NCBI GenBank assembly: GCA_002633005.1 | Contig: NMRA01000608.1 | Location: 91,067-155,066 of the forward strand | Source: Phoronis australis | Taxonomy: Eukaryota > Animalia > Phoronida | DNA: 64,000 nt | Direction: 5' to 3' | Shown here: in pieces, positions 7,801 through 54,100 of the stretch | Numbering within the stretch: the first letter of the stretch is position 1 | How the letters are laid out: the number at the start of each line of letters is the position of its first letter | Program-made: the position numbers and the translations under genes | Notes under the pieces: model-generated | Database searches by the model: none | What the model was told of the DNA's origin: nothing | The model's input: only the letters and a program-made list of their open reading frames with translations

Positions 7801-8366
7801 AATACACATTGAGTCATTACATTACTGACAATAATTCGGATAACGCTAATCAGCTTGCAACAACAGAGGAGTCAATTAATTTGTACAATGCAAAGTTTCT
7901 GGAAGACACTTTTGGCAGGACATGATTTTCGTTGCATAACAGAAAATTGATCAAATCGCTCGCTACACACAAGACAAAAAGTACAAAAATAACAAAACAA
8001 GTTCTATTTATCCACACTAGTACTAACCACATGGGTAGTCCCGGAAGCCGGCATCCCTCGCAACACTGTCAAAAGGTTATTTGACCCAAGTCAAGAGTTC
8101 ACAAGTAACAAGCAGCAATGCGTTAACCAAACCAGTTGAAACATTCCGTACAAGAGTTACACAGGGATTAGAAAGACATGTTTCGTACTTGTGATATCAG
8201 CAAACGGATTATCATCGAACAACAGCAGAGAGGGATGACGGCTAACGGCCGGCTTTTGATTGGTGAGAAATCACAGTAAACAAGTGTGTTCGCGAGTTAC
8301 AAGTCAGTGGTGAAACCTGAACACCCGACCAACACAATTAATCTGTAGCATTCGTATTAAGTAGAT

Positions 8367-8589
8367 CAGGGCTTGGAATGACCAATGACAAAAAAGAAGA
8401 AAAATTTCCAGGCGATTATCATTCCACAAATAAATAGGCTTGTGTGATAGAAATATTGTTTATGTGTCGTGAAATAAATGTTTTTGCGCGAATAAAGTCA
8501 AAATAACAGTAAAAGAGAGGAAAAAAGAGGAAGCTGGAAATCAAATGAGAGGAAATCGAAACCAAAAAAGAGGAAAATTCCAAGCCCTG
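8367..8589 (+). mobile_element. hAT-like MITE, 6-bp TSD family, copy 1
   Basis: TIR CAGGGCTTGGAAT / ATTCCAAGCCCTG; flanks GTAGAT/GCAGAT. Confidence 0.85.
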
Positions 8590-9220
8590 GCAGATTAACA
8601 AAGCAACCAGCATGGTCTCACCAGTCTAGGTTATTGACTGAATACAACAAGTACCCAAAGCTCGTGGGTGTGCACTCAACAATTGATCGTTAACACAAAG
8701 TCAAGAGTTAAACAACACATGTGCAGTCACACCCACTGGGTTCCATTTAAAACAATTAATTAAATTATGTACAACTCAAAAAAGTATTGGTGGATACAAA
8801 GATCAGAATTGTTACACAATAAACAATGTACAACCTGCAGTGATGTCTTGGCTGACGTATTTTGGCGTCTTTTGTGGTCTTGTTTACAGCAACTAAGAGA
8901 GGTGTCGAGGGAAAATTTGTTTTTTCACACTTAAATTGAAGAGAAAATAGGAATGTAGCATGTACTGAGGACTAGAGGTTTGTAAGTACATCAATGATAG
9001 CATTGCTCATACAGTATCTAGCGCCATCTATTGGCAGTTAACTATGCACATTGCTGACACCTAGTGTCCAACAGCAAAGGTATGGGTGGTAACCAAGAGC
9101 ACAGAAGACACCATACGTTAGTACTAACAATTAGTTTGTGGTAGACAGGCACTTAACTTGTACTCTGTACGGCTCATTTTGGACATGTTCATACACTTGG
9201 TTAAGAACGTCGAGGCTTGG

Positions 9221-9300: not shown

Positions 9301-12300
9301 CTGGGTTTTAGTGAAAAATAAAGAAAAAAGAGAGTTAGTCTATTGATCATGGCATAAATAACATCAAATTGACAACACAGACAGCGGTACTAATACGTCG
9401 ACATTAAGTGTGTCACATGCTAGGCGTATTACTGGGCATGCTGTAAACGCTTCTAAACATATTCTTCCACGCAAAAAAACACGGAATATCGATCTTATTC
9501 CTTTGGCAGAAAAAATGGTCGTTTTGACCGAGAAATTACACACTAGCCGAATGGAACATAAAGCCAACTTTTAGACTGAACAATGATTTCTGACAGATTG
9601 GATGGTGACGCCAGAGAAGAGACTCATGAAGAATACGTTACGGAGACAGACATTGTAGAAGCATACAGATGTGATGAAAGGCCTCCCATAGCAATTAAAA
9701 GAAATAAAACCAGTGCACGACTTAAATGTCAAAACATTAGTAATGCTGCGTTAGTTTAAGAAAATGCATTGATCATTAAATGTCAATAACATAATAACAT
9801 CCGCGTTAGTCATCTAAATTTTAACTAAAGACCTCTAGCACCCCACTATTTCGTTTTTAAAAAATCAACTTCATTTTTCAACAAATGGAAATTTATTTTC
9901 ACCAGTGCAAATATTTCTACAAATTCATAATATTGGTAATAAATCAACTAACAATAAAAAAACAAAAACCGATATCCTGATATCAGGTACCAACAAATAT
10001 ATACAAATATTGTCTTCTAGAAACATGATATGGGTAACATAGTTCATCAATGTCATCATTTAGTCCAAAACATACAAAATGTCAAAAACCCAAATCTCTT
10101 GAAAACAAGAGTCGTAGTTTGCGAACTGTCGGAGATCTCTAAGCTTCCGTCGTAATATCCAAACCCACAATTTTGACATTCATAAAAAAATTCTAAAATG
10201 GATTATCACAGGTCATAAAACAAGTAAACTACTTACAAATTCTTTGGGAGAACAGAGCAGGACAAATAAGATAACATTTCAACAATTGGATGACTTAATG
10301 AATGGATTTGCATATATGAAAATTAGATATGCTCTAAAAAAAATTCACTGAATGATGCAACTATAAATTACACTTTCTGATTGTCCCCACACAATAGCAG
10401 AATTAGCAACAAAGTCCAATTCCCACTTCCCGGATTCAACTCCGCTATTTTCAAAGTAGAAAAAAGCACTGTATGATTGACCTGGTTTTCAAAATGCAAG
10501 GCCGCTAATGCACTTGTCCACCCTGTTGGACAAATGGAGGACAAAATTGTGCCCTACTCAACTTTTGGAATTGTTTGGTGCAACAAAGCACCTTACTGTA
10601 CAACAGAAAAGCCCTACTGGCACTGAAGGGAGAAACTAATCTGAGGGGGTGGGGGTTCAGCACAGTTTGTCAAACAGATGTAAAGCAACATTGACTGACT
10701 TATAAAACAAGAAATTCCTCAAGATTATTCACATCGACTGATCTTACTTCACAACCCCAGCAACACACAACTGCTATCAGGTGAAATGTGATGGGATTAT
10801 TGTCATCTTGGAATCAGCTTGCTTAGGAGATCTTACCTTACGTCGTTGGAGGTAAAAACTAAGTTTTTTCCTTATTTCAGAGCAAACAAGAAAACATCAA
10901 AATAAAATCTCTAAGAAAAAAAATAATGGAGTAACTTTTTGAGTAAAAGGCAAACGCTAAAATTTGAGGCACCTAAAAGCCGGTCAAAACATTCGCTAGT
11001 GCATATGTTAAGAAAATCAGTAACTGAGAAATTTAACTAAAGCCCTTAGAACATAAAACTGATGTAGTTAAGCTAGTTTCCTCAGATTCCAAAATGCTTT
11101 CAATAATCAATTCATTCAACTCATGTTAAGTTCACGTTTCTGGCTAAGGAGCTCGTGTTTAGGCATCTATGTCAGAATAACTTAACTCTACGACCCCCAC
11201 TTGGTTTGCAGATTTGTAGTAGCCGAAATTAATCTTCAAAATATCAAACTTTTAAAAGACCCAATGATAATTTACAACTGTGTCGAACCCCCTAATAGTG
11301 TTTACCAAGGCAGCAGTGTACAACTGTGCCCCACGGACATATAGCATTGTAGGTAAATTGTGCAGTATCAGGGAATGTGCCGTAGTATTCCGGGAAGTGG
11401 TTATTTTTAAATACCACTGGTAAAAGACCGAAATGAGTCTTAGTCGAATCTGTCCACTTAAATACAGCTACAACAACAACTGAATACACAAATATGCGAT
11501 AAAATATATCAACTAACCCAACTTCCCAGTAACAGGTATACACAAATAACAAGAAACTCCCCCAACAAAGGAACATTCACCCATCCCACTACTCTACGAA
11601 GCTCGTATAATAAGACTAGCAAACAATGACGTACAAAATATTGCAATGCTCTCTGATAACTACTTAATTGACTGCTACATAGTGCATTCGATGTAAATGG
11701 CAAAAGTTTAGCGCAAAAAAGATTGAGCGAAACTTTTGAATAGAAGGACTGAATTTAAGAATTTGAACTGAACTTTCAAAACCATCATATAAACAACTGT
11801 TCAGGCTAAAGCAAATTAACTTGTTTCCAATTTTGATGAAATCAAAGAACACGCTGATATTTTAAAGTTGCTAATCAAATGTGATCGCTAACGTTTTTCG
11901 TCAATAGGTGGATATAACGGGCCCATATTTTGAGAACCAACTTGATTCCCGTTATTCAGGGGAGACAACTAGATCTTAAAATTCGGACATGTTAAAGCAG
12001 AGTATTACCAACATTTTCAGTGCAGATTTCATCAAAATTGGCAACTGATCAAACATCAAGAAATAATTAAGACTAACCTTTTTAAGCAAGCGGGACCCTG
12101 CTATAAGGGTGCTGCCTGACATTGACAGCAGCTTGCCTGATGTTTTTTACAGCACCTAAAAGAGTTCAACTTTTAGTAACAGACATCCACCAACTGTGTC
12201 AGCACTGCAGCCATCACCTACTGACACCTAGTGGACATCAACATAGTAACAATGTGGGAGAACCTGGATAGTTCACTTAAAACGATTAAAATATATTGTA

Positions 12301-15300
12301 ACGCTTCTAAAAGTAACATAGTTTCCCTTAAAAAGCAGTCTCTAATGGAAGCCACAGATCACCTTCACGGAAATGTAACATTAGCCAAATCTGTGATGCA
12401 TTTGTGACCCTTTAGTAGATGATTGGCAAAGGTGATTTTTACTGTTTGAAGTCATAATTTTGACCTGTCGCTAATAAAAACCATCCCCAATAGAGATCAG
12501 AACATGTCTGGAATTAATTGTCGACCAGGGTTTTTAATTATTGTCAGAAGCTTTACAGCATAAAATTAATGAACGTAACACAGAGTGATGTTAGCCTGAC
12601 AACTGTCAGATTTGACTTCACAAACTTTTTGGTGAGAATGTCTGTTTTGGTTCAAGGATAGAAATCTACTGAAAACCTTTATGGACCCGTATGACATTTG
12701 AACGAATACTGCTTAATCTCAACTTTAACAGGCTAAGACAGTGAAATCTTCCTTCAATGCCGATCTGGTGCACAGCGCCACCTATCTGACATACAACATA
12801 CCAGCTGCACTAGCTTCGACAGCTCCTGGTGGATACTCGACCAGCGTAGGAGCAAAGCCATAAGGTGAGGGGTACTCATACGGAGCGGTCGTGTACATGA
12901 GACCAGCATGGGACTCTGTGGGTGAGACCAGCGGGGGCGGGAACGACGACGCTGTGGCAGAGGTAGGCACGGTCATCCGCGGGGCCAAGATGAGGGGTGT
13001 CCCGGCAGAGGTGGGCGAGCGCAGGGCGGCTTGTTGAACGGCGGCAAGTGGAGGACCCAACACGCGTTCTGAAACGAGAGTACAAACACAAGATGAGGAC
13101 AAAGATAGGAGAGCGCAGGCTGTGCTAGAACTTCTATAAGAAGCGAGTTGACTGTATGACGACATATAGAGGTCTGATATATATATAGACAGCAAGCGAC
13201 TTCAGAAGTGTGCAATAAAATTGGTGCAAGGAACACAAATGGTGATCAATCACACGCACTGGATTAAATGGCACGACAGAAAATAAAACATCAACGTTGA
13301 CTGAATACATGGAGACAGTAGTAGTACATAAGCTGTGGTGTTACTCACGCAAAGACGGCTCACTGATCATGCTCCCCATATGACTCATGTAGTGAGGCTG
13401 TGAGTGTGAACCATCCATCATAACTAATAGAAAACAGGAGAGTTAGCAAAACAAGCATCAACTATAATGGCTCCCCACACACACAAACAGAAACTCCACC
13501 TCGTATCTAAGCGGACGGGCTGACAAAATTCACGTGAACTAGCAATTGGTAGTCTTTTCATTTTGATATGTGGAGAGCACAGAATTTAGTTAAACCAAGC
13601 AACATGACTAGTTCTACAACAAATGTATAGCAAGCACCTGTTCATCCAACACGCAGGTTTCAACAACAACCAAAAGAAGACTGCTCATGTACAAAACACA
13701 TTTTCTGTTTGAACATTTTAGGCACAGAGAAGTGAATGAAAAAGCGACTCTCATTAGGACAGATAGATCATTCCTAGCCAACACCCAGAAGAACATGCCC
13801 TGATGAAAACGATTCAGGTGAGATGAAAGCAACAGAATCACATCAAAGTTGCCTGCGTGTACCGTGGCGCAGCCTATCGCTAGTCTCAAAAAGGTTTTTA
13901 TACTACCACCACAGGCAGCAAAACGAATTCTGGTCATTATATAGGTGCCAAGCACAGCTTAGCAACTGTGACCAGGGTAACTGCTATAAGATAGTGAAGG
14001 ACTTGAAGGGCGTAACCTAAGATGTGATCTATCTACGTTGGTTTGGAAAAACAAGCAACAGAGCAGAGAGAGGAAACTTTTACAGACAACGGCAGCAGTC
14101 GTGCATTACAGCTTGGTAAGAAATCCAAAGGTAGCAAAGCAACTTAGGCCAACATTCCAAAACAGATTCATGTACAACTGCTGTAGAGCACAGATGTCTT
14201 GTAAAAGTTAACCCAATGCAAGAGTTAGCATATCCAGGTGGCTGCTTCAATGAAGGTCTTTCCACTGATGGACCATCACTGGCCGCAGTCACCGCTGAAG
14301 GTCCATCCAACACAATGTGAACTTGAAGCAAAACAACGGAACAGAAACTGAGGGTCTTTATAGGGTGGTTTAAGGGTGTGGGTTTACAACAACAACTCAA
14401 CTCCAGAACCAGGCAGTCAAAGACATGCTCACGCCATGCCAACTTACGGGTCACCGATCCAACGGCAGCAGGGATTTGCTGAGTGGTTTTAGTGGTTTCG
14501 CGGTACGTGCCATTCATAATAGCAAGCTCCATAAGCTGGCGTTTCTTAAGATCATCCTCCCCTTCCGGCTGAAATAGTTATGTCGGTTAGCACGTTATTT
14601 ACAAGACACTGCCTGTGTACCTATGCTGTTGGCTGGTATTAGTACGGTTATGTGCCACCAGAGGCCCTTGCTGGTACTTAGCCAACTCCAGTGCTCTCAC
14701 ATCATGACAGTTGAACAGCTTGGCCCCAAATTAATCAACACAAGCTTTTGTTACATTCAAGCAGAGGGTGCTTGACAGTAACTGTTGACAGAATGGATCA
14801 ACGAATCAGTACAAGTGACCAGTAGCCATTCAAATGTGCTTGAAGTGAGGGCACTCAAGGAATGCAGCGTGCCTACAAAAGAGAAGTGAGTCAGTCAGTG
14901 GCCGACTTACGTGCTGCAGCCTGCTGGAGCTGAGCTTGGAGCGCACACTGCATGTTTTGGTCACGGTATGTCCCGTTGATCATGGCAAGTTCAATCAGTT
15001 GCACCTTCTTGATAACGTCCTCACCCTCAGCCTACAATAGCAGGGGTCAGAGGTCAACACACGTACACAGGCAGGGGATGGGATGGGGGAGAGGTAGGGT
15101 TCAAGGAGCAGAGGTTATCACACACATAGAGGCTGGTGATTGGACAGAAACTAAGACGATGATATAAGGTAAAGAGAAACTGTGGAAGATTGGGAACGCA
15201 AGAGCTTACTTTTCAACAACACATGAATTATCAAAATAGTGACCATAGACAACTTGTGGTTTTATTGCTGAAAAAGCTTGAAATCTGCCAATAAGTTTTA

Positions 15301-18300
15301 AGTGACAAAAACAATAAGAACAAAATGGTACGAAACAAACAAAAAAAGGGAAAAGATAGTCATTTAACACAAAGCCCAAAATATTCAGCAGGTACCTAAA
15401 CAACTGAGCCCAAAACGGTCGGGGCAGGGAGGGGGGGTGAGGACGACAACGACGCTGTGGCAGAGGTTGAGTTCTGGGAGCTCATTGGCCTGTCCAGGAT
15501 AACAAATATGTTTAGGAAATGGTGTAAGATACAAAAACAAACTAGGGCAGAACCACGTCCCTACAGCAACGGACCACACAACAGCAGCAATTTGGCTTGG
15601 GGTCGTAGGCCATGGATGCCCATAGAAATTGATAAACCCATTTTGGACAGCCAATTTTGAAATCCTGAATGAACCCCCTGCCTGGACTAAAGTAAATCAA
15701 CATTGGCTTGTAAGTTGCTACAGAATGTTCATTGTCTTCACTGAACCACCAAGGGGCCACAAGATGTCCCAGTAGGTACTCCAGGGCCATCAATACCTCG
15801 ATTTTGGGGCCTTATATTGAACCCATTTACCTATGAAAAATATTTCATCATGCAAAATTTCCCATGTCAAGCACAAAACTTAACCTTCAAGGTTACAGTC
15901 ACTAGTAAGTCGCACATTATTTGAAACTGCACAAAACATAACTTTCTGTTACTTGAGGCAGAGCCGATGAGGGGTGGAGATGAGGCTGGATTCATATAAA
16001 TTCTTACACTCACTGTTAAATCAAACATGCGCACTCAGAAACTCATTGCCTCAATCATGTTAGCGTCTTTGCATCAACAAAAACTAGGAATGTGATAACA
16101 ATAGCCCAGACTCCCACAACACAAGTTTCACACTTATAAGAAAACTTTTGATTTGATGATAACTCAACACAAACAAAAGCTGGGCAGCGAGGCCACTTCA
16201 GTACCTACGCCAGCACAAGATTCCACAGAAACAGCTTGAAAGGACTGTGTTTGGTGGAGACACATTCAGTTCTCCCCTAAATAAACAGAGCCCTTTCAGT
16301 AGTTCTAATTTCCACATGGGCAAGCCCTGTGTGATTGAGATGACATATTTTCACTGTCGCTCTCTAGTTATGATTACAGACAGGTAACAATGGACGAAGG
16401 ACTATTTACCTAACCTAAAATACTCAATACAATGGATAGGGCAATTTACTGAAACAACACAAGTGGGCCAAATTCATGGGAACTTTTGATGGCAAATCAA
16501 AAACGGATCAGAGTAATTTGCTACACAGTTGCAAATTGCTCGATGGAACAAGCACCAACATTGAACACTCCTAAACAGAGTCACGCCATTAGGAGCAACT
16601 GGTCAAAGTCCAAAGCAATTGTTGCGATGTAATTAATCTTTGAAAAACTGAAACTGAAAATTTTTAGCAGTCCTTGTAGAAAGCTATATATCGAAGAAAA
16701 AGCATATAAATACGACTGACCTCTATTGGTTAGGACCTAAACGGGTGTTGTGACTTATGCAATAACACCACTTAGCAACAGCATTGGCCCAGTGTAATTA
16801 AGATAAAGTTTCATTGTAAACACTAACGAACATGCATTATTCAAGAAGGCTAATTATCAAATTGACAGTTGTCAGCAGGACAGGAGAAGTCTTACAATAC
16901 ACACTGATCAGGTAATCACTGGCACAATATGGCCGACAAGGGCAATTTGTCAAAGTTGACTACCTAAACTCAATTTGAGGTGGGGTAATATTATCATTTC
17001 TGAAATTTATTTGTTGAGTATATCAGAAACTCGTGAGCTCCTTCAAAGAACGCCATAACACCTGAACATGTTGGGAGATATGACCGATCGAAATGTTGCG
17101 CCAATCAAAATAGGCTGGAGGTTGAAGGAAATAAACTAGGCAATAGATTTTACAAATGCTTGTCAAAGTTCAGCCGAAACGAAGTTCAGACATCTATGCT
17201 GAATTTTTAGCATAGTGGGTCCTGTAGGGTAGTCTGATAACAAGCTGACTAATATGCCAAGCACTCGGCCTTTGAAAAATCATAATTTTGAAAATTATTT
17301 TAGTATGAATTGTACTTGAATTTTTCGAAGAATTCACAAACTCACACATCATACGCAAAAATTTTAAATGTTTCACCGAGGAGTTTATACGAGTCGTAAA
17401 TTGGTGGCAACTTAGACACATGTAGTTGATAGTCAGGGGTTAAATTTTCAATCCATCTCCTGAGATTTGTGTTGTTGAGCTTCTAGACCCACAGTTGAGT
17501 GCTGGTGAATGACAACAACAAAAGAGTGAATAGCCCTATTCAACAGGCTTTAAAAGAATTTCCTTGCTCAACCAGACCAACACCAGCTCAGAGCTCTTCC
17601 TCACAAACACCTGTCTACAATCAAGAACAGTAGATGATAAATAACGCAAATTTGTCAAATATTTTTGCGCCATTTCAACATATTTGCTACAAAAACACAG
17701 GGTATTTTCTCAGAACCTGGTGCAGGATCACATTTCAGCAGAACTTTGACTCACAAGTGTGCAGACTATGTCACTGATAGAGAGAGTGGTATTAAGCACA
17801 GCCTGCAGGTATGTTGCCCATCTAATCAATCAAGGCCTCAGGTGAACCAGGCTCCACAGAGCTGGAGCCACAAGACACACTCTGCCCACTGACCAGTCAT
17901 CCTGCATTTCAAAGGATGGACTGTGATTTTCTATGAAAAGGCCACAGGGTAGATCTCAGCCCAGCTGGGTCACACAATAGACCTGGTGAAAGATGAGGGT
18001 TTCCAGCAGGGATTGGCAGGGTTGCAGTAAATAGGGTGGGGGTATAGTAAGTGGATGTGTTATGGCATATTGCACAATAAGGACAAGAAAGTACACTCAA
18101 AGGTCAACCTCAAATGACTGTCCAGTGTACTGACACTTTGGTCAATACACATACACACCCATAATTCTTGGAGCTGGTGTTGAATAAGGAGAGTGTAATA
18201 CCACTACCAAGCCAAGTGTCCTTTTGAAATGAACTGCGGCAAAGTTTTACTTTGCTAAATACAGGTAAAAGTTTGCAATTTTCTGGATAAAGAGATTGAT

Positions 18301-21300
18301 TATTACGCGATATTTGATCGCAGCGCATAGAGAAATACTAGCATTCCAGAGACACAACAGGGCAGCTGTCGCTGTGGATCATACAAATAAATCTGGGTTA
18401 GGAAATCAGTGACCAGAACCAAGCAAATGGCAAGAAACATGACTGCAGTTGAAGGTTTTACATGGCATGCCTGTCACGGTACGCCTGTCACGGAAACAAC
18501 TGGTCAACAGTAGGTTTACATACAACACTGCGTTAGTATGCCCAAGGAGAAATGAAAGACCACAAAAATGGAAAATCTAAAATGAAAGTCATATTAATTA
18601 AATCAATGTAAAGCCCACCCTGAACTGCACCTCATGTGAAATTAGTTCCCACAATGATTTCTGTGCACCATTCTGAGGGGTCACACCAAAGACGTGAATT
18701 GTCGAAAGGAATGAAGTCTCATTGACTCGCTCTGATCTACTTGACCATAAGAAACATTACATGCAGTTACATTCAGACCCCCCCCCCCTATTTTCAGCCT
18801 CTCACAGTGACACAATACAGAGCAGAAGACACATATTTGACGGATGTACCCACGTTTGACTGATTAAATCATGTTTTTTATGTTCAGGCCTTGGAATGAC
18901 CAATGACAAAAAAGAGAGGAAAATTTCCAAGTGATGCAACATTCCACAAACAAATAGGCGCGTGTGACAGAAATATTTCTTGCGTTGTAAAATTTAACTG
19001 AAATGAACGTATTTGCATGAATAAAGTCAAAACAATGATGAAAGAGACGGAAAAAAGGATACCGAAAATCAAATAAGAGGATATTGAACGAAAAAAAGAG
19101 AGGAAATACTCTTAAAAGAGGAAAATTTCAAGCCCCGTATGTTGCTATTGTATTTCTGGCACTACCTAGATAGCCCCATACATCTAAAAAACAAAACTCT
19201 GTTCAAGGAAGGCTTTAACAAGCATTGAGGAACAATCCAAAACTCGCACACTTTCCCTCAGACACACAAACTCCCAGCCAATAGTCATCTCCATGTTAAG
19301 TCCACCTCAGTGAACACAGTTTGCATATTGAATATTTCTTTTGAAAATAAATTCACTGTCAACTCAACCCTGGCTGGTTATTGATTCAGTAGTGTCTGTA
19401 ATTGTCACCACTGTTAACTTAGGGTAGTCTATTGGCTATTTCCCTTTGAATTTGCAGATGTCATTCACCAGCTATGGATTTGTTGAAGTCTTTTAAAATG
19501 CACATAAAACAGGTGCGAATCAATGGGACTCAATTAGAGCTCAGTACGTCTTTATTCTTTAATAAAAGCGAAAAATGAAGGCCAAACTACGGTTTAATGA
19601 ACCACGAGAAAATGGAGTGCCACAAACAGTTAATTGGAGTGGACAAAGGCACAGGATGTCAAATATTGGCAGTGGTGGTCTTAAACTATAGTGAAGTACT
19701 GGCCATGACGGTCTTGATCATCTCAAAGCAGGTGGGGAAACAACAGACAATCGTCACCAAAAACAATAGACAGGTTAAAGCACCGATAGACCATCACACA
19801 ATTGTACATCATCAGCTTCACATATCTGAATATACAGGTCACATTATGACTATTTCACATTATGACTATTTAATCAATCAGAAAACACCGTTAACAAACA
19901 TTGAACATATGCCAGCTAAATGACTATCTGCCACTTCGTGCGTACTATTTGCATAATACTTACAACAGGTACAAGTAACTTGTGGACTTCTTCCTTTGCT
20001 TTGGACATTTTAGCCTCCGCCCTCGACTTCGTGTCCTCGACTGCGATGAGAACGTGTAGGGGCTCGTCTAGGTGTTCCCAGCCCTGTTTACCGCGCAGAC
20101 TGTCCTCCTGTATAACAATAATACGCTGTCTACATTATAATCTCTTAACGCAGCAGAAAAGTTGACAAATGACATTCCTACCTAGTTTAAACTATTTTTG
20201 AAAAGGCTTTTTTGATACACTCCTTAATCACTCAAAAAAACAAGGCACGAGTACTGTTAATTTTGTTTATCAATTTTAGGCTGAACACAGATATTTCAAA
20301 TAAAACCTAACAAGTTTACAAAACTGACTCAGACAGGCTACATATCGGGATTACAAACACGCAAAATTTTGAGTTGTGGAATAGGCACATCAAAATTGTA
20401 AGTAAGCCTACAGCCACCCATCTCACTCCAACAACAATTGTAAGTAAGCCTACATCCACCCATCTCAGTCCCAACAACAATTGTAAGTAAGCCTACAGCC
20501 ACCCATCTTAGTCCAACAACAATTGTAAGTAAGCCTACAGCCACCCATCTCAGTACAACAACAATTCCTAGTCCTACCTTTTCCTTCTTTCTCATTGAAT
20601 TCCGCCCTCGGATCATTATTTTGCATCCCGTTCTCTTTTCCAGCGTCTGCGCTGTCGTGCCCCTTGGTCCAAGAATTTTTCCTATAAAGTTGAACTGGAA
20701 AAAAATGTTTGATGAAATGGCAAGATTGTACAACATAAGCTGGTCAGCTGTACACACTATTAGTGTTTCACATCGAAACATGATAGATTTAAAAGTTTTT
20801 TAGACAAGTGTCTGTCCTTTCAGATAGTTTCACCGTTTTAAATTTGAAACAAATACAGTAATCGACTGCAGAAATTGACTCAAGCAGCCTTTTGCAAACA
20901 TTTCTTCCATCAGTACCCAACAGCAGATCAGAAACAAAACCATTAGACAGAAGGGAGTTCAGGATATACCTCAATGGGCAAGGGGGGGGGTAACTGGTTA
21001 AGACCATCCATATCAAAGGTGATTGAAATCTATCAAAAGGAAAAGTGAAGTGTAAACACGGCCCCCGCTTTGTAAATACCCTCCCTACACCTGCTTCTTC
21101 AATGTGTATAGTTTACAATGTGTACAGTCCGATCAGATTAATTGTTTCAAGCAAGCTCACTTCTGTCCAGTCAGTCAACTTTGAGCAAAACCAGTACATC
21201 TGTCATCATTAGCAGAGAAGCCTTGCCTATAATGTGTACCTCTATAGCCATTTAGTGATTAATACTGGCCACAAAGTGAAGTCAGGCGATTTATTTAGCA

Positions 21301-24300
21301 CCATCTCCATCTAAAGGGAGACCAGCCTCTGTCCAAAGGGAGACCAGAAACCGGCCTCAGTCCAAACAGAGATTGGCCTCTGCCCAAACACAGACCGGCT
21401 TCTGTCCGGAGATCAGCCTCTGTCCAAAGAGAGACCAGCCTCTGTCCAAAGAGAGACCAGCCTCTGTCCAAAGAGAGACCAGCCTCTGTCCTAAGCGAGA
21501 CTGGCCTCAGCCCAAACGGAGACCGGCTTCTGTCCAATGGGGGACATGAGTTAAAGGCAATGAAAGTGAAACAAACATTGGCATTGAAAATTTGAAGAGT
21601 CATTATCTAGAGTGTACACAAAGACTGTGTCCACTGGAATAGGTTGTGAAATTCGACAATTACGAAAGTCAATCTCAGCTTCAGATGAGACTTTTGGCAA
21701 ATAAAGACATAAACACATCTTGAAACCTGCAAGCCACTCTTGTAAGAATGGTTTTCAGGTAAAAGTACTCAGGACACCAGGACCAGACAAGCAGCTTGAA
21801 GGACTGGGCTCTGATGTTGATATGAAGTCAAGTCACCATGACACTAAACTGTTTAGGAACTGGACAACATTTTGCACTAGTAAAGTAGGGCTCAGGTGGA
21901 GGGGTGATGGCTTGTACTGTACTCAAGACAATGAGCAGACAATTGGACCCCAGTTAATAGCAGCAAGCAACTGTCAACAGTAGACAGGATTTCTCCAATC
22001 TGCAACTCTTTCCTCACGTCCTCTACCCTCGACGTGACAGCCTGTCAACTAGTAAGACTTCAAATCTATGCAAACTGGTTTCACACAACCTAAGTTTGCA
22101 GAGGGCTTTTGAGATCAATCCAAACGGCTGATTCAATTTACAGCCATAAAAGACTTGAACAGACTTTTACCAATGCAATACGGCACACCAAGATGGATGG
22201 GACGTTCTTCACTAGTGCATTGCAAATTTAATAAACACCCACGTCTCTGCAACACATGGAATACATTTTCACAGTATCCCTTATGAAAAACTAACAATTA
22301 GAGACAGGCTCCAAATAAAAAAAATACCTTTGGAAAAGTCTCCACTGGCACATGTATTTTTTCTGTGAGTTTCACTTTTTCACCAACAGGGTCTGGCAAG
22401 GATAGCGTCTCGGGACCGTCTATGTTGAATATTGACACACGAACCTTGTTTATTTCTGGAAGAAAATGGGGAGAGTCAAAAGTAGGCACAAAATGGCCAA
22501 ACTGACCATACAGTGAAAAAATCCCAAGACTTGTTAAGACAATGTCAGTTTTGGTCATAGCATAAATAACAGGGCTTGGAATGACCAATGACAAAAAACG
22601 CGGAAACTTTTACGGCCCAATACATGCGCGCTACCCATCCTTGAAATAGCCGATGTGAACCTTTCGCCGACAAAAATCGGTAGGACTAAAAAATAAAAAA
22701 TAAAAAAAGAACGTTACCACCATCAATAGCATGCGTCTGTGACTTCTTATCTCGTCCACCCACTCCTCCACTCCCACCCCCAACAATTTTTGGCTGCAGA
22801 CCCGTAGTATTTGTCACCGCGGTTAACAATCACACGAGATGCCATTGAAAATCCCACGTCATCCCAGATGCCCCGGCAATGTTGACAATTTACGTTCCTC
22901 CGAAACATAAAGAGCAACTTCCGCTTTTTGAGGTGAACGTCGTCAGCAACGCCGCGGTAAGAAAGGAATCTGCCGCGGAAATTTTATATCAAATCCGATT
23001 TTTTACGCGGAAACATAATAAAATGCGCGGACAGAACATTTGAAAAAAGCGGAAATCCGCATTTCCCCGGAAAATTCCAAGCCCTGAAATAAAAAAGATA
23101 GAAAAACAAAAAGCACAAATTGAGATTTTTGGTCACGTGATAGACGCATAATACTTGATGAGCAATTTAAATGCAACAAGTACCGTATGAATTTATTTTG
23201 TGGTATAAAGGCAAAAAACTAATAGGGATTCAACTGTCCATAATAAACTTACAAAATTTTACTAACAAGCTACAGGCTACTAGTGAACAATTGTAAGTGG
23301 CCTCAACCAGACACTAGCAAGCGTGGACATAAGGTCATTCAGTGTTTCCTCAAGTTAAGGAAAGGATATTGGTTCACCATTTGTAACTGTGCACTAATCG
23401 GCCAATCTTCTGGCCATGCATTGTCTTTCAATCAGAAGACAAAACAGTAACCAGACCCACTAGGCACAACCTTTAACTCACAAAGGTGAAACGCGGCCAA
23501 GTCAACACAGGTGATATTTTCATCTAGACTCTCTTCACAACCAATCCTAGTTAGAGAGGACAAAATCAACAAAGACTGGATCATTATGGAGGGCGAGATT
23601 ACGAGGTAAACGGGAACAAGATGTGAATGCCACTAACAACCTTGGGAACATGAGTTTGTGCTTACAAGCAAAGCATAGCAACAAACCAAAAGCATATCAG
23701 CCTAACACCTTCCAGAGTTCATGATTTCTTGAACAAACAGCACAACACATGGCAGGCATTACATCTTGACTGATCATCAAACCGTGCCTGCTTGTTAACT
23801 CACAGTTGGGCCAAGAGGCCTTGAAAGCAACACAATATTTTTTCAGTCTCAGACTTTATATTAAATCAACGGTCTGCGGCTTGGGGGCTTAACCACAGTC
23901 AACCAATAGTGAAGATATTGCTTAGCCTCCATTGGAGTCCCTGCCATATCAACTTCACACAAAGGCTACGGTATGGTACACACATAAAGTTGTGACATCC
24001 ATCTCAACAATTTCAGAAAATTCATGGTTGTCTTGTTCTTGGTAATGTTTAATTTCAAAGGACAATACACTATGAAATCGGTAATAATTCAAAACAGTCA
24101 CCATCCATGCTCACTTTCGGTAAAAAAATCTAAATTTAGGTAAAATGGAGAATTGAAAATTCATTTCGTGAAATTTCACAACTGTTAATAAACAACAAAA
24201 CATTGGATGCCATTGCTGTTAAACAAGGTTTGTACGGTGGAGCTCAGAAGCTGTCAACAAACTTTTGGCCAAATTTTGAAGACTTGTAGCAATGTAGTCC

Positions 24301-27300
24301 CAAATATGAATTTTTTTACCAGAATGACACGATGCTCACTTCACGCAGAAGGTGAATATTTAGGCTGATCAAAAATTTGCCTCTGGGATAAAATTTAAAC
24401 AATACGACGGTACATTCAAGCAAACTTGTAAAAAACGTAAATTCATACGAACAGATAGAGTTTAGGGCTTGGAATGACAAAAAAGAGAAAAATTTTCCAC
24501 ATGATGCCTCGTCCCAAAAACAATTAGGCTAGTGTGATAGAAATAATAATAAGAGACAGAAAAGAGGAAACTGGAAATCAAATAAGAGGAAATCAAAACC
24601 AAAAAGAGGAAAATTCTAAGCCCAGAGAGTTGCCCTAAAAGCAAAGCCAAAACGCATGGCAAGTTGGGACTTGATGTGCAGTGGAAGTTTTTTGACCTGT
24701 CAAGGAAGAGTAAACACAAGGAGTTTACAACAAATTTAAACAACCACTGGCTGCTGCAGCATGCAACCAAGCACAAGGAAATCTAAATATTAGGAACCGT
24801 ATAAACAGACAGACTAATGTTGAAAACTTAAAATGACTTTCATCATAACACTTTCCAGGATCTTTTTGGTAATGTATTTGAAGTTATGGCTATAAATCTT
24901 TTAATTGCCTAATTAAAGATACTACACCTCAGTTTTGTCTGCGCTAAACATCATATCACTTTCCATATGTGGAAAGCTGATAGAGCTCAAGCCAGCACCT
25001 GTATAACACCACAGCACAAATTGCAGTCATCTCGCAATTACCTAGCATTCAAACATTGTTATGCGTTGAGCTGGTCATCCGTAAAAAAATTAACTTCAGT
25101 CTTGGATGGAAGTTAATCACCACTTTGCAGTATAGTAGAGAGGCAAAAAGATGAAACTGCAGTGTAGTGTGAAAGGTTAACCGCTGTGGCACCAGAGTAC
25201 AGTAACAACGCGTGCAGAGCATTTTGTATCACTTTTTATCCAAACATATTAGAGCCCTCGCTCACCTGAGCGGAAAAGTAATGCGGCTTGTGGAAGGCTA
25301 ACTTTTTGAGTGTGGGAAAATCGCTCTGCCCTTCGGTCACCACCAATTAGAGGGATTGTGTGAATTGAAAGTAATACTAACCTTGAGATGGTTTTGTAAT
25401 CCCTGAAGTGGGCAGTAATTTTTGGGCCTGATGAGTGGATTTCGCTAGATTTTAAAATAATTTTTCTAAAGTTAATGGAGTCAATATTCGGCTATGAAAT
25501 CAGCGCATCCAGGGCTCTAGATATTCATGATTTTTTTTATAATAATTACGTGTACATAATGCCTTTGTACTGCCATCTGGTTTTAACTTTTGACAACCCA
25601 AAGCACTAAAAAGCGTTAACTACCAATGCCAGTCATAAAGGGTTCAACTACCTTCACAGTTTACATAGAGGCTACCGTTTGTACTGAAGAACTAATATGG
25701 TCTCCAAAGGCTTACAGACTAGAGCTAGCCAGACACATGGAACAGTCAGTCAGAGATACCCAACAATATTACGATTTAATCCCAAGGTTTCCTCTCCGAC
25801 TTCACCGAGTCAGACTTGAGAGCTTGCTGTGTTAAATATTTGCTGTACACTAACACCATTGGCAACTTCCTGGAGAAGACTAAGACTGTACCAAATGGTT
25901 ATCCCAGTGCCAAGAAAACTCCTGGCAAGTCGTCATCAACACCACAGTTCAGCCATGGCTGTTACTCAATCTACAAACTAACACATTAACACAGCTTCAT
26001 GGAAGAGATAACTTAGGATACAGCTCCAATTTAAAGGGCACTGCCAGTTAAGAAGATTTACAGAACCGAAAGAGCAAAGCCTACGAAGCCCTTCATCAGA
26101 ACCACCAAGAAGTGAGAACATTCAAATGTTTTCTGGTACTTCTATCACCTATTTCCTGTGAACCAGGAGTTTAAACTTGACGCAGCAAATACCATTATTG
26201 ACTGTTTGAAGGTGAAATGATGGGTTGGCTGACTAGTAAAGATCTATTTCCTGAAATAACAGAACATTAAAATGTATTCTGCGACTTCTATCCCAAATTT
26301 TCAGTGAAACCAAGAGTTTAAACTCGATACAGCCACAAGCATTACTGACCGTTTGCAGAGGAAACACTGGTTTGGTTGATTAGTAAAGTTCTATTTGCTT
26401 AAATAATGGAACATTAAAATGTATTCTGCTACTTCTATCCCCAGTTTCCAGTGAATCACAAGTTTTAAACATGATGCAGCAAGGAGCATTACCGACTGTT
26501 TGAAGGTGAAACACTGGTTTAGTTGACTAGTAAAGCCCTATTTGCTTAATAACAGGTCAGTTGAATAGCCCTTTAAAACATGATAAGCTTAGTATTACAG
26601 ACATTCAATTTAATCGAAGGAAAGGTTACAACAGCCCAAGATAACTCGGACAACTTCCCCAGTTAGTCAACTTATTGAGCGAACCTGGAAACAGAATGTT
26701 GCTTTGCGATGTTTTAATAGAAAACAAGTTCCACGCGTGTCCCTGGTAATGAAGTGACAAGCAGGAGACGGAACTATTCTAAGAGCAAATCCCAGATTTA
26801 AATACGGTAAAGAAAAGTGAATGACTGTTTAATGAGGACATCTTGGACTAGTTTTTCCTGGACTCAAATTACAAATGTGTTGACAGCTACCTGCAAATAT
26901 GGAATTACTTAAAAATGGCACGGTAACAAACGGAGAGAAGTTCACCATTTTCTAGCAAGTTTCAGGCTTCAACATACACTGTTTTGAATTGACATTTTTA
27001 CAGAGAACACAAGTCTACAATTCGTGACCTTACAACTGAGATAAAATCAACAATAGCTGATGACAAATTAAACTAAAGGAATTTAGCAAACATTTTTACA
27101 TTAAAGCGTGCAATAGAAACGCAAAGATTGAAACCAAACTCTCTTTGTTCCACAGAATCTATTTTAGCTTTACCTGCTGAAGTTCATTCTGGACATAACG
27201 ATAATGCTACAAACATTATACTCTCCTTGTGTGGCTCAGACAGGAAGTTTATCAACAGCCAAAGGTACATTATCACAAAATGTCATTTCCAGACTCATGG

Positions 27301-30300: not shown

Positions 30301-30880
30301 AAACATCACAAGGCACTGGCCATTGGGGCAACAGGATTTCAATATGGCTGCTCGTCGTCGGAGGAAAACAAATCTCGGCATCTGTCAATCTTCCGTAGTT
30401 TTTATAAGTTAAAACAACTCACAAGAACTGTTTTGAGAGAATTTCGATTGTCTAATTATGTGAACGAAGGAGACACATGCTACTATCTGCTCTCAGACGT
30501 GAGACTTGATACTTTAAAAAGAGGAAAAATCTTCGGTCAAGTCTGGATAGAAATCGGGTCGCTTCTATTTTTGGAACCAGTTGCTCCAATTCATTCCACG
30601 AGAACTATCACCCAACAGCTGATATTGAGACTTTTGGACAGAACAAGTGAGTAACCACTAAGTAAATTTACATAGCTGAAATTGTATTTCAGGAAACAGT
30701 CCGGTTTTATTACTTATCAACTTTCTCACCTTCGTCGAGCAATCTTTCCACATGAATGAATCCTCCACCAGTCAAATTTAATTGTGGGGCTAATGTTTGT
30801 AGCTTTGTCTTGTCTTTCAGAAGTTGTGCTAAATATTCTGGTGTGTTACGTTCATCGACACTGTTAGTTTCTGTCCCCAT
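9221..30880 (-). CDS. QKI: Quaking/How-family STAR (QUA1-KH-QUA2) RNA-binding protein, multi-exon and alternatively spliced (about 315-360 aa depending on isoform)
   Basis: Minus-strand exons, all GT-AG with consistent phases: 30880-30730 ([28 protein letters not shown]...[13 protein letters not shown]1); 22455-22328 ([10 protein letters not shown]...[24 protein letters not shown]); 20694-20578 ([12 protein letters not shown]...[20 protein letters not shown]); 20107-19964 ([26 protein letters not shown]...KLLVPV); QUA2 exon 15031-14911 or 14568-14448; optional 13423-13349; 13068-12802 (Pro/Tyr-rich tail); then read-through to a stop at 12782 or distal exon 9300-9221. The motifs match QKI/How/GLD-1. 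Confidence 0.93.
13349..13423 (-). CDS. QKI: Candidate 75-nt in-frame cassette exon of Quaking
   Basis: TGCTAAC-TCTCCTGTTTTCTATTAG acceptor and GTGAGT donor, phase 1 to 1. Open frame [25 protein letters not shown]. Confidence 0.65.
14448..14568 (-). CDS. QKI: Quaking QUA2 exon, variant B (121 nt, phase 0 to 1)
   Basis: TGCTAAC branch point, TTTCAG acceptor and GTAAGT donor. Encodes [40 protein letters not shown], close to the canonical How/QKI QUA2 helix. Confidence 0.92.
14911..15031 (-). CDS. QKI: Quaking QUA2 exon, variant A (121 nt, phase 0 to 1)
   Basis: TTGTAG acceptor and GTAAGT donor. Encodes [40 protein letters not shown] with no stops. Confidence 0.88.
18885..19137 (+). mobile_element. 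hAT-like MITE, 6-bp TSD family, copy 2
   Basis: CAGGCCTTGGAAT...TTTCAAGCCCCG; TSD TATGTT; internal GAGGAAA repeats as in copy 1. Confidence 0.85.
20394..20577. repeat. 42-bp minisatellite, about 4 copies, abutting the Quaking KH exon donor
   Basis: Unit AATTGTAAGTAAGCCTACAGCCACCCATCTCAGTCCAACAAC at 20394, 20436, 20479 and 20521. Confidence 0.9.
21315..21538. repeat. 22-bp minisatellite, about 10 degenerate copies
   Basis: Unit TGTCCAAAGAGAGACCAGCCTC. Confidence 0.9.
22570..23086 (+). mobile_element. hAT-like MITE, 6-bp TSD family, long variant
   Basis: Same TIRs, TSD AAATAA, and a different CpG-rich interior with GCGGAAA subterminal repeats. Confidence 0.85.
24463..24625 (+). mobile_element. 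hAT-like MITE, 6-bp TSD family, internally deleted copy
   Basis: TAGGGCTTGGAAT...ATTCTAAGCCCAG; TSD AGAGTT. Confidence 0.85.
25250..25519. mobile_element. MITE with TAGAGCCCT termini
   Basis: TAGAGCCCTCG / CCAGGGCTCTA inverted ends; imperfect flanking duplication CATAT/GATAT. Confidence 0.55.
26116..26553. repeat. Three diverged tandem copies of an approximately 146-bp unit
   Basis: GAACATTMAAATGT...ACTTCTATC...TAGTAAAG..CTATTT recurs at 26116, 26262 and 26409. Confidence 0.85.
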
Positions 30881-51140: not shown

Positions 51141-54100
51141 ATGGCGGACGATGGTGAGTTCAGCTGAAACAAGCTCAACTTTTGATTAGTGTTGTTGTGG
51201 GCAAAACCGTTGAATGGCCTACGATATTGTTGATTCTGTTAGTCAGACAGAGGGAGTGGAGAGTTTTTCAAGACTCGATATATGTTATTTTAGCATTCTT
51301 GAAGCATTAAAATTTGCAAGTGGAATTAATTCAAGAACAATTTAAATTTTTAAAAATCAAAAGACAGTCTGACAGTTGACTTTCTGAAAAGAGCACTGGT
51401 TGGATGTCTGGTGGAAGCTATGATATTGAACTTAAATTTTATAACATCTATTCGGTGCAGTAATTAATCTTGTGTGAAAAAACTAAAGTTCCCTTGTTAC
51501 TAGTAGTCATGATGTGTCCTAAAAAATTGAGAGTGAGACCCAATTACTTAGAATTACTAGGTGTCAGCCATGTTTTCCAGATGTTCCTCCATTGGAGGAC
51601 ATGTCAGATCTGCTCCACCAGGTGGAGCGGCTACGAGAGTACAAGAAGACGTCAGAGAAGCCATCGGCCAGTATTCCTGCCAAGCTTAAAACGAAGGAAA
51701 ACTCAGCCTCTCATGAGAAACAAGCAAGTGGCAGCATAAAGGACAGCACTGTAGGTTTCAACTTGTGTAGGATACACCACTGCCATGTGTAGAGCGCGGC
51801 GCAGTATTGGCTAATTCTCTATATTTGCAAAACAGACCTGCATATTAGCAATAAGGTTTATAGTGAAATTAGCAGGCCCCCCTCTGAACATTACACCACC
51901 AGGGGCCCTGCTTTACACCTGTAGAACACCAGGGGCACTGCTTACGCAAAATGATGGGCTGCTCTGACGGGGTACCCTGTGGTTTCTAAGGCTTTTGCAT
52001 ATTAGCATCGATTGAAGGCTTTCAATCACTCATTAACAGCTAATCAGCTATTCTTCAGCTACGTAGTCAAACCGTGAGATGGCTAGGGGCGTGACTTGCA
52101 TTCCCACAAGTTGGCGCCCATCAGATAGTCGTGGGCTGCTAATCTGCGATTTTATCAGCGCTATTGTTGCTAATCTTACTGTTGCAGAGTAGCATGCTAT
52201 TCTGCAATTGCATGCTATTCTGCAATAGCATGCTATTCTGCAATAGCATGCTATTCTGCAATGGTAAGGTTGCTANATCTAGCGATTTAGCCTATCCTCC
52301 AGGTTTATGGGTGTGTATAAACTATGCAAATTAAAGCTTTTTTAAGTGGTATGCGGAATGTGTCAATGAGCAAACAACCATGATAACAGTATGTTATCAT
52401 AAAGTCATTTTCACAGCTAGTTGCTGCTTTCAGTGTCAGAGTTACCAATTGACTGCCAAGTGCACTGATCCATGAGTTGGGTAATTACCCATTCTTCACC
52501 TGGTTAACACAAAATTTCATTGGAGATGACTACAGTATTAAAGGACGCCATCAGGTGAAAGGATTACACTTTCACCAAATCCCAAACAAAAAGCTATTTT
52601 TATATTTTTCCCTGTTTAAGAAATTTCTGTCGTTCGCTTATCTATTGAATTGGGATTGATGTAAAGCCTTGTAAATTGCTAGTCATCAAAGTGTAATTCA
52701 CTCAAATTCAAAATGATTCTGATTCGGGATCTGAGTTCGAAATGTCAGATGTAAGGGCTGGCGATGTATTATGTATTTCAATCAAAACTCTTCATTGACC
52801 ATTGATCATGTTTTTTCACCTGAGTCATTGTATGATGTCATAATTTTAAAGTATCACTAAACGATGTGTGGGCATCTAACCCTGAAAGTTTCATAATAGT
52901 GCACCAACCAATAAAAATTTTAAAGTGTTTTATTGATTGTGCACTACAGGTATGTTCGATGCATTCTTGGCACTGGGAAATGCAGTTCTAAAAAAACTTA
53001 GCGGTGAAATATTTAATTTCATTTGACGATAGGAATTTGAACTTTATATTTTGTTTTTGAAACAGTGGTATCATCAAGACAATGAATAATTTACAAAGAA
53101 CACCTCAGTTTGAAAAAAAATTGTCTGTAGCTTGAAAAGTTGCTCCAAGACATAGCTTGTTATTAGAAATTCAGCACATTGTATGTGGTTTGAAAGATGA
53201 CACTCAATTGTCAGTGCACTCACATTCAGTTTTTAGTTAATTTTTTTTTCAGTTGTATGGTAAAAAGGAAGCCATCAGGCTTGTGCCTAGCAATCCAATC
53301 TGTAGTCCAGCCTTGTTGCGTATCACTGGAATATTGCTCTGATATTGATGGTTGATTGAAGAATTTCTAAGTCAGAATTTCCTTTTAACTTAGTGATGTC
53401 TAATTATAATTATAATCTTGCTATATAAATTCAGGTGAAACAGACGTGTGTTGAGCCAACGAAAGAGAAGGACCCTGGCTTTGGAGGTTTCAAAAAAGGC
53501 TTTCTTCTTGGTGGATCTGGTTCAGCTAAAAAGAAACCCATTTCTGCTAAACCTAAAGTAACAGAAGATATTCCCATTATCAAGCCTAAAAATCCAGAAT
53601 CTCAGGATAACCGGTTTACTATGCCAGAGGTCCAGCAAGCTATGAAGGCCAAACAGAATCTACTTGAGAGCACAGGTGTGTTTACAATCAGTCTTTGCCT
53701 TCCATAGCAAAGACAAAGTTTTGTCATTTTATTATCTGCTTTTTTACTGTAATAGAGTAGTCTTGAATTACGTAGACTCTGTTGTATGAGTTGGGATGGA
53801 ATGAAATTGTTAAGGATAAAAATGTTGTCATGTTCAATTTCTAAGGTATTGTTTGAGGCCCCTTGGGATTTACTTTCAATAGTTTTCAACGAGTAATAAT
53901 AGTCGGTGTTTGCCCTGATCGTTCTCGTATCATCTCCAGTTATGAGAGTCAGTGTTAAACCTTACTATTCACTGACATCACACTGTTCAAGTGTATTACT
54001 TGTATTACAGATTGGGTCACAGAGGATTTGCTGACAAAAATAGCTCAGAACAAAACTCTAATGAGGAGACTTCAGGACCCTGTGTTTATGCAGGCCATCG

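Follow-up and report, generated by a model that had tools for sequence, protein, structure and literature searches.

The minus strand of the window, by which we mean the whole 64,000-nucleotide stretch of Phoronis australis DNA analysed here, carries a complete gene of the Quaking/How type that runs from exon 1 at 30880 to a stop codon at 12082. Quaking is a master splicing regulator with roles in muscle, glial and germ-line RNA programmes, and the known isoforms of its family differ either at the C-terminus (QKI-5/6/7) or in the first exon (asd-2); for Quaking, the variation is described as lying outside the RNA-binding domain. The exons of the gene, in order of transcription, are as follows.

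30730..30880, minus strand: exon 1, start codon and QUA1 dimerisation region; ATG, GT donor and open frame, no read-supported junction
22328..22455, minus strand: exon 2, end of QUA1, linker and start of KH; inferred from AG/GT ends and the continuous frame
20578..20694, minus strand: exon 3, KH with the GPRG loop; Pfam KH-I_KHDC4-BBP, E 1.7e-11
19964..20107, minus strand: exon 4, end of KH; donor common to exons A and B, 76 junction reads
14911..15031, minus strand: QUA2 exon A, the upstream copy and the major form in reads
14569..14910, minus strand: intron between A and B, 342 nt
14448..14568, minus strand: QUA2 exon B, the downstream copy and the minor form in reads
13349..13423, minus strand: exon C, a 75-nt frame-neutral cassette with junction reads for both inclusion and skipping
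12802..13068, minus strand: exon D, Pro/Tyr-rich region; 48 reads join C to D
12082..12155, minus strand: coding part of exon E, the last exon, with a QKI-5-like HPY tail; stop at offset 71

Exons 1 to 3 were placed from splice signals and frame only, and the sequence of exon E is matched by loose read ends in each of three RNA runs (18, 19 and 23 reads). The QUA1 region matches Pfam STAR_dimer (PF16544, E 3.9e-9) and is followed by a single type I KH domain (PF22675, E 1.7e-11; PF00013, E 8.3e-6). With either QUA2 exon the best match in the PDB is QKI (4JVH; E 8.4e-8 for exon B, 2.3e-7 for exon A), and GLD-1 is also among the top matches. The protein thus resembles the Quaking/How/GLD-1/ASD-2 subfamily of STAR proteins in its QUA1-KH-QUA2 order, GPRG loop, full set of published QUA2 RNA contacts and HPY-type tail, and differs from them in that the QUA2 exon itself is swapped. 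In a QUA1-KH tree of 30 rows the window protein was left unplaced (branch 1.0, best identity 65%); the long branch suggests that this region evolves faster than in most of the Quaking proteins sampled. Its assignment to a spiralian is based instead on the exon pair and on the resemblance of the tail. All seven exonic variants tested are synonymous, one of them in exon A (15026) and five in exon D.

Several other observations were made along the gene and around it. Reading through the exon D donor (12801-12782, minus strand; depth 0.7-5.9) would yield a short YVR end followed by a stop, and YVR is also terminal in four homologues (P0016, P0065, P0069 and P0161), which suggests conservation of a short isoform that lacks the HPY tail. 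A 22-nt piece of exon D (12943-12964) recurs as a direct repeat with 21 of 22 positions matching at 15446-15467, in the intron above A (self-search E 0.08); no junction reads use the repeat there. A dispersed repeat of about 250 nt is found at 18880-19135, 8365-8600, 24470-24625 and 54842-55092 and draws many reads from elsewhere in the transcriptome. The neighbouring genes are a DEAD-box helicase (PF00270; 40000-50100, minus strand), which we take to be DDX18-like, and one encoding an STI1/HOP DP domain (51500-55700, plus strand).

Exons A and B are each 121 nt long, run from phase 0 to phase 1, are free of stops and are bounded by AG before and GTAAGT after. In an ungapped alignment 60 of their 121 nucleotides are identical; the cores have 16 of 24 residues in common, 12 of them specified by different synonymous codons. 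No further copy was found below E 0.4 when each peptide was searched against the window by tblastn. The lengths, phases, ends and peptides given for the pair in the original prediction were all confirmed when checked against the sequence. So was its claim that including both exons or neither would break the frame: co-inclusion places a stop codon in B, 14 nt from its start and 446 nt ahead of the last junction, and omission of both likewise leads to early stops. Just past exon A (14910-14873, minus strand), branch-point-like words, a pyrimidine run and a TAG lie no more than 38 nt from the donor and form a possible decoy acceptor; no joints use it.

Use of the exons was examined in three stranded raw-read runs of one study carrying the same species label, of which about 18-19% each was covered, together with one contig set. 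A joint was listed if at least 3 reads from 2 starts supported it in one run; 12 weaker joints fell beneath this threshold. Exon 4 is joined to A (19964>15031) by 19, 14 and 23 reads in the three runs, 56 in total, and to B (19964>14568) by 7, 1 and 12 reads, 20 in total. Downstream, A is joined to C (14911>13423; 8, 19 and 13 reads) and to D (14911>13068; 0, 0 and 11 reads), and B to C (14448>13423; 2, 2 and 5 reads, with five further short loose ends in run X4). These five junctions, all anticipated from the sequence, are present in reads. A joint from B to D (14448>13068) is absent among those listed at the same threshold, and a first mapping that showed no joint from B to C had raised the possibility that B is a terminal exon, which was dropped once such reads were found. 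Exon C is included in 40 reads from A and 9 from B; it is skipped in 11 reads, all from A and all from run X4, and in the X1 contig. The share of B was 7/26, 1/15 and 12/35 (27%, 7% and 34%), and the runs do not differ significantly (p 0.13). In run X4, depth past the exon B donor (14317-14447) is about 10 as compared to 3-4 further on, which may reflect either unspliced intermediates or partial read-through.

Each exon is thus joined to common flanks. No joint between A and B is among those listed (at least 3 reads from 2 starts per run), and double skipping was not seen, as the loose ends behind C and D consist of B-end and C-end sequence only. Mutually exclusive use, as proposed earlier, holds at this limit of detection. 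Since the stop in a joined A+B message lies 446 nt above the last junction, decay could hide co-inclusion if it acts here; steady-state RNA cannot tell exclusion at the level of splicing from decay of A+B.

The exon pair extends well beyond this species and is older and more widespread than the original prediction supposed. When the B peptide was used as query, gene models carrying two QUA2 helices were recovered from oysters, a pearl oyster, a mussel and snails, and among mollusc isoform records both types are present in 28 of the 41 species tabulated, which span four classes (bivalves, gastropods, cephalopods and a chiton). Of the remaining species, 12 show one type in one to six records and one, Bradybaena, has two A-like versions and was excluded from the count of species with both; Bulinus, Candidula, Mytilus galloprovincialis and Octopus vulgaris, with a single record each, were left out of the table. 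A gene model of the trematode Paragonimus also carries both types. In this model (P0105, from Paragonimus kellicotti), position 9 of the upstream copy is Gln and the TYR end is missing; should the model be real, the RNA contacts of flatworms may truly be altered. Among 80 metagenome loci, 15 have two copies, and 9 of these are distinct. All two-copy metagenome loci have exons of phase 0 to 1 and length 3n+1, with the copies 79-841 nt apart, and co-inclusion leads to a stop inside B in 10 of 10 loci, comprising the window and all nine distinct metagenome loci. In three of the nine, the A core is identical to that of a record from the bryozoan Watersipora. Two transcript contigs (L029 and L047) that are near-identical in the KH end and the downstream exon differ in whether A or B lies in between.

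The order A then B and the phase are unchanged in every two-copy locus in which the DNA shows the order. Profiles built from mollusc sequences were applied to 10 held-out pairs that include the window and the trematode, and typed the upstream member as A and the downstream member as B in all 10, with small margins of 1.9-14.4 bits. Between copies, 7-14 of 16-21 codons differ synonymously, and such heavy divergence implies that the copies are not being homogenised. The suggestion that both copies are old is supported by the common order, phase and diagnostic residues across spiralian lineages, and the suggestion that both are under selection by the retention of core residues alongside diverged synonymous codons. 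The simplest reading would be a single duplication near the base of Spiralia, presumably more than about 550 million years ago.

The searches also returned single-copy genes and a few less certain cases. Records from Branchiostoma (21) and arthropods (8) have one QUA2 core each, which does not thereby exclude a second copy. At four loci (L011, L016, L019 and L025) the KH-end exon leads to one B-type exon without an intervening A, and at L079 there is a lone A-like exon. Single-copy loci may possibly reflect loss of one copy or the partitioning of A and B forms between paralogues. A profile search of cluster representatives gave three tandem open reading frames among the 150 matches listed, and a homologue search that used exon A only was negative, with 19 candidates examined. 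A two-QUA2 model from Acipenser was set aside because its copies are identical, making an assembly or model artefact likely.

What the swap would change in the protein can be considered against published contacts. GLD-1 contacts RNA through QUA2 residues G308, T309, D310, K313, R314, L317, L320, A321 and R328, as described in PMC4081071, and QKI through K190, Q193, L194, L197, A198, T203 and Y204, as described in PMC6847458. All 12 published contact positions are identical in A and B of the window. Across 20 A/B pairs, 10 of the 12 are invariant and the other two vary as K/R or Y/F in three pairs each; position 10 differs in 17 pairs and position 18 in 16. The helix changes between A and B of the window, at positions 6, 7, 10, 13, 17 and 18, fall at 140-280 degrees and the contact residues at 300-100 degrees, on faces defined from a 100-degree wheel rather than from coordinates. 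The Asp-to-Val change noted in the original prediction is at position 6, adjoining the essential D310 position without occupying it, and the Arg-to-Val and Met-to-Ile changes lie on the far face of the helix. Because QUA2 contacts both QUA1 and KH according to PMC4735526, the face bearing the A/B changes may be a packing surface.

The two types are nonetheless distinguishable. Arg10 is present in 20 of 20 B exons as compared to 3 of 20 A exons, these three being pulmonate or ampullariid snails with Arg10 in both copies; Thr25 is present in every one of the 20 B without being fixed in A, and Ile18 in 19 of them. In the eight-residue tail the mean number of Ser/Thr is 4.0 in B versus 0.95 in A. 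B exceeds A in 19 of 20 pairs, and in 10 of 10 where DNA gives the order; for the ten named pairs, this contrast is partly circular since the typing was by sequence. Met10 and Leu18 are found in both the common mollusc A core and the human QKI chain of 4JVH, Arg10 and Ile18 in both B and crustacean How. The earlier description of B as canonical and A as aberrant can be kept for this species but not in general, as the usual mollusc A core matches human QKI at the diagnostic positions.

The proposal that the swap alters the RNA-recognition surface, such that A and B read different motifs or the 5' bases with clearly different strength, is unlikely on these residues. It would be in keeping with the account in PMC4081071 of QUA2 as the main modulator of STAR specificity, in which changes at the KH-QUA2 interface alter binding, with the maintenance of two distinct copies across phyla, with six helix changes in A of this species and with the altered upstream copy of the trematode model. 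Against it stands the identity of all listed contacts in the window. Moreover, position 10 varies among single-copy proteins, being Met in QKI, Lys in GLD-1 and Arg in crustacean How, yet these proteins are reported to read the same heptamer, and the R314K substitution costs GLD-1 only 1.2-fold (both PMC4081071). With the motif reported to be common to single-copy QKI, How and GLD-1, a change of motif between A and B is unlikely. An effect on affinity through packing is possible, and the better guess is that A and B tune affinity, dimer geometry or modification.

Turning to the choice between the exons, the intron that separates them contains elements that may be relevant, and a predicted stem pairs this intron with the one above A.

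15055..15074, minus strand: predicted 5' arm of the stem, at -43 to -24 of the exon A acceptor
14638..14650, minus strand: predicted bipartite Quaking-type site, a UAAC half-site with an ACUAAU core, at -82 to -70 of the B acceptor
14609..14628, minus strand: predicted 3' arm of the stem, at -60 to -41 of the exon B acceptor
14586..14590, minus strand: CUAAC at -22 of the B acceptor, likely branch point of B and a possible Quaking site

The A-B introns of the ten loci contain 28 CTAAY in 2,621 nt (10.7 per kb), an enrichment of about ninefold in a word that is also the branch-point consensus. The density is about 1 per kb in the 2,964 nt lying upstream of A (3 copies), in the 2,811 nt lying downstream of B (2 copies) and in 39,824 nt of other sequence (46 copies), and the antisense strand has 1; shuffling gave 7.3 expected, with a maximum of 16 among 1000. 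With one locus taken per lineage (six in all) and the last 45 nt removed, 13 were counted against 2.3 expected (0 of 1000 shuffles). Among all 1,024 pentamers CTAAC ranks highest, and 9 of 10 A-B introns contain it. At 17 single-copy loci CTAAY occurs 9 times upstream (4,858 nt) and 4 times downstream (4,895 nt). The window taken alone is not enriched (2 versus 0.81 expected, p 0.19), the A-B intron of L009 has none and that of L013 is at background level. In the window, the bipartite site is the only one of the gene's eight intronic ACUAAY with a half-site nearby. As described in PMC13004596, QKI activates exons from downstream and represses them from upstream or from ACUAAC branch points, so that sites between A and B would favour A twice over. 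ASD-2 is described as repressing an acceptor through CUAAC repeats (PMC3875643), and mouse Qk as autoregulating its isoforms (PMC5695090). The enrichment suggests autoregulation.

A second alternative treats the CUAAY words as branch points placed near the A donor, which would make exclusion a constitutive, steric effect and not one governed by Quaking. Distant branch points are reported to enforce exclusion in OGDH (PMC7969005), and in A-B introns of 105-113 nt the distance from the A donor to CTAAY is 23-71 nt, and in L038 the words lie between +31 and +60. In the window, however, both sites lie farther from that donor, at 269 and 321 nt. The long introns (292-342 nt) also have several AG between the sites and the acceptor, and up to seven sites per intron exceed the need of one branch point. 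We consider this account improbable.

The predicted stem (15074-15055 with 14628-14609) has 19 of 20 positions paired, giving 19 bp and about -32.1 to -33 kcal/mol. It was matched by 0 of 300 and 0 of 200 shuffles and by 0 of 200 real intron pairs; it appears in the minimum-energy and centroid folds, with a pair probability of at least 0.96 at 16 of 20 positions, and no competing partner lies within 8 kcal/mol (the next-best are -24.5 and -22.7 kcal/mol). A looser home-made energy model had it matched by 5 of 60 shuffles, and none of nine other, distant loci has a counterpart. Since the stem was also chosen post hoc from 100 inverted pairs, it is at most lineage-specific. If formed, it is predicted to hide the A branch region and loop out A.

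That the copies are functionally redundant remnants which persist only because each has to remain open, or that they had several independent origins, is very improbable: cores that are nearly identical in some snails, the existence of single-copy relatives and the small profile margins would fit, but Arg10 and Thr25 mark every B without being kept in A, order and phase are identical in every two-copy locus, and the synonymous divergence speaks against homogenisation.

Taken together, we think it fairly probable that the gene carries an old tandem QUA2 pair used one or the other, with the same ACUAAY motif predicted for both forms, a likely difference in packing and in the Ser/Thr-rich tail, and a choice that Quaking itself likely biases through CUAAY. 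In such a scheme Quaking would favour A by binding downstream of that exon and at or close to the B branch point; high Quaking activity would thus give A, and low activity would admit B. In this species the 19-bp stem could help B, and messages with both A and B would be removed by nonsense-mediated decay. Arg10 and the B tail may then tune affinity, dimer geometry or phosphorylation, not the motif.

Parts of this scheme have parallels. Like exons 3 and Ab of U2AF1 (PMC5224494) and the E12/E47 exons of TCF3 (PMC6795145), A and B are homologous exons of which an mRNA takes one, they lie in a domain for nucleic-acid binding or interaction, and intronic stems and branch-point features are implicated; the present case is another gene in another clade, and its A-B intron is enriched in the motif of the host protein itself. 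As in the docking-site and selector clusters described in PMC6071210, the predicted pairing of intronic sequences would place one exon in a loop and leave the other accessible, but here there is a single pairing with no close competitor that is absent from nine other loci. Tandem CUAAY adjoining an acceptor, found in the window and at L001, L005 and L027, is a likeness to the control of RAI14 exon 11 by QKI (PMC13004596) and of unc-60 intron 1A by ASD-2 (PMC3875643), with the difference that the putative target here is Quaking's own RNA-binding exon.

Tandem mutually exclusive exons are of a well-known kind, and no published description of a QUA2 swap in Quaking was found in the literature searched. 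QKI has no mentions in the main text of a human catalogue (PMC9741552), and PMC4316625 makes no mention of a QUA2 duplication. Searches aimed at a duplicated QUA2 exon or at invertebrate Quaking isoforms, in literature outside subscription journals and supplements, likewise listed no description. The original prediction knew of no QUA2-swapping isoforms, but A and B isoforms are already in RefSeq as automatic predictions. The exon pair also explains mis-built two-QUA2 gene models in oyster, mussel, snail and trematode annotations.

A broader and speculative extension, which we hold to be rather doubtful, is that a Quaking feedback switch has operated since the spiralian ancestor. Quaking would bind between its QUA2 exons, with abundant protein yielding a vertebrate-like A form and scarce protein an arthropod-like, phosphorylation-prone B form, each with a distinct affinity or set of targets; vertebrates and arthropods may then each keep one state. 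In a two-exon, motif-rich minigene, autoregulation and the competition of QKI and SF1 for branch points would be testable in an ancient setting. By keeping a QUA2 swap, molluscs, bryozoan-like animals and flatworms offer a natural experiment that may show which surfaces of QUA2 are important besides the base contacts.
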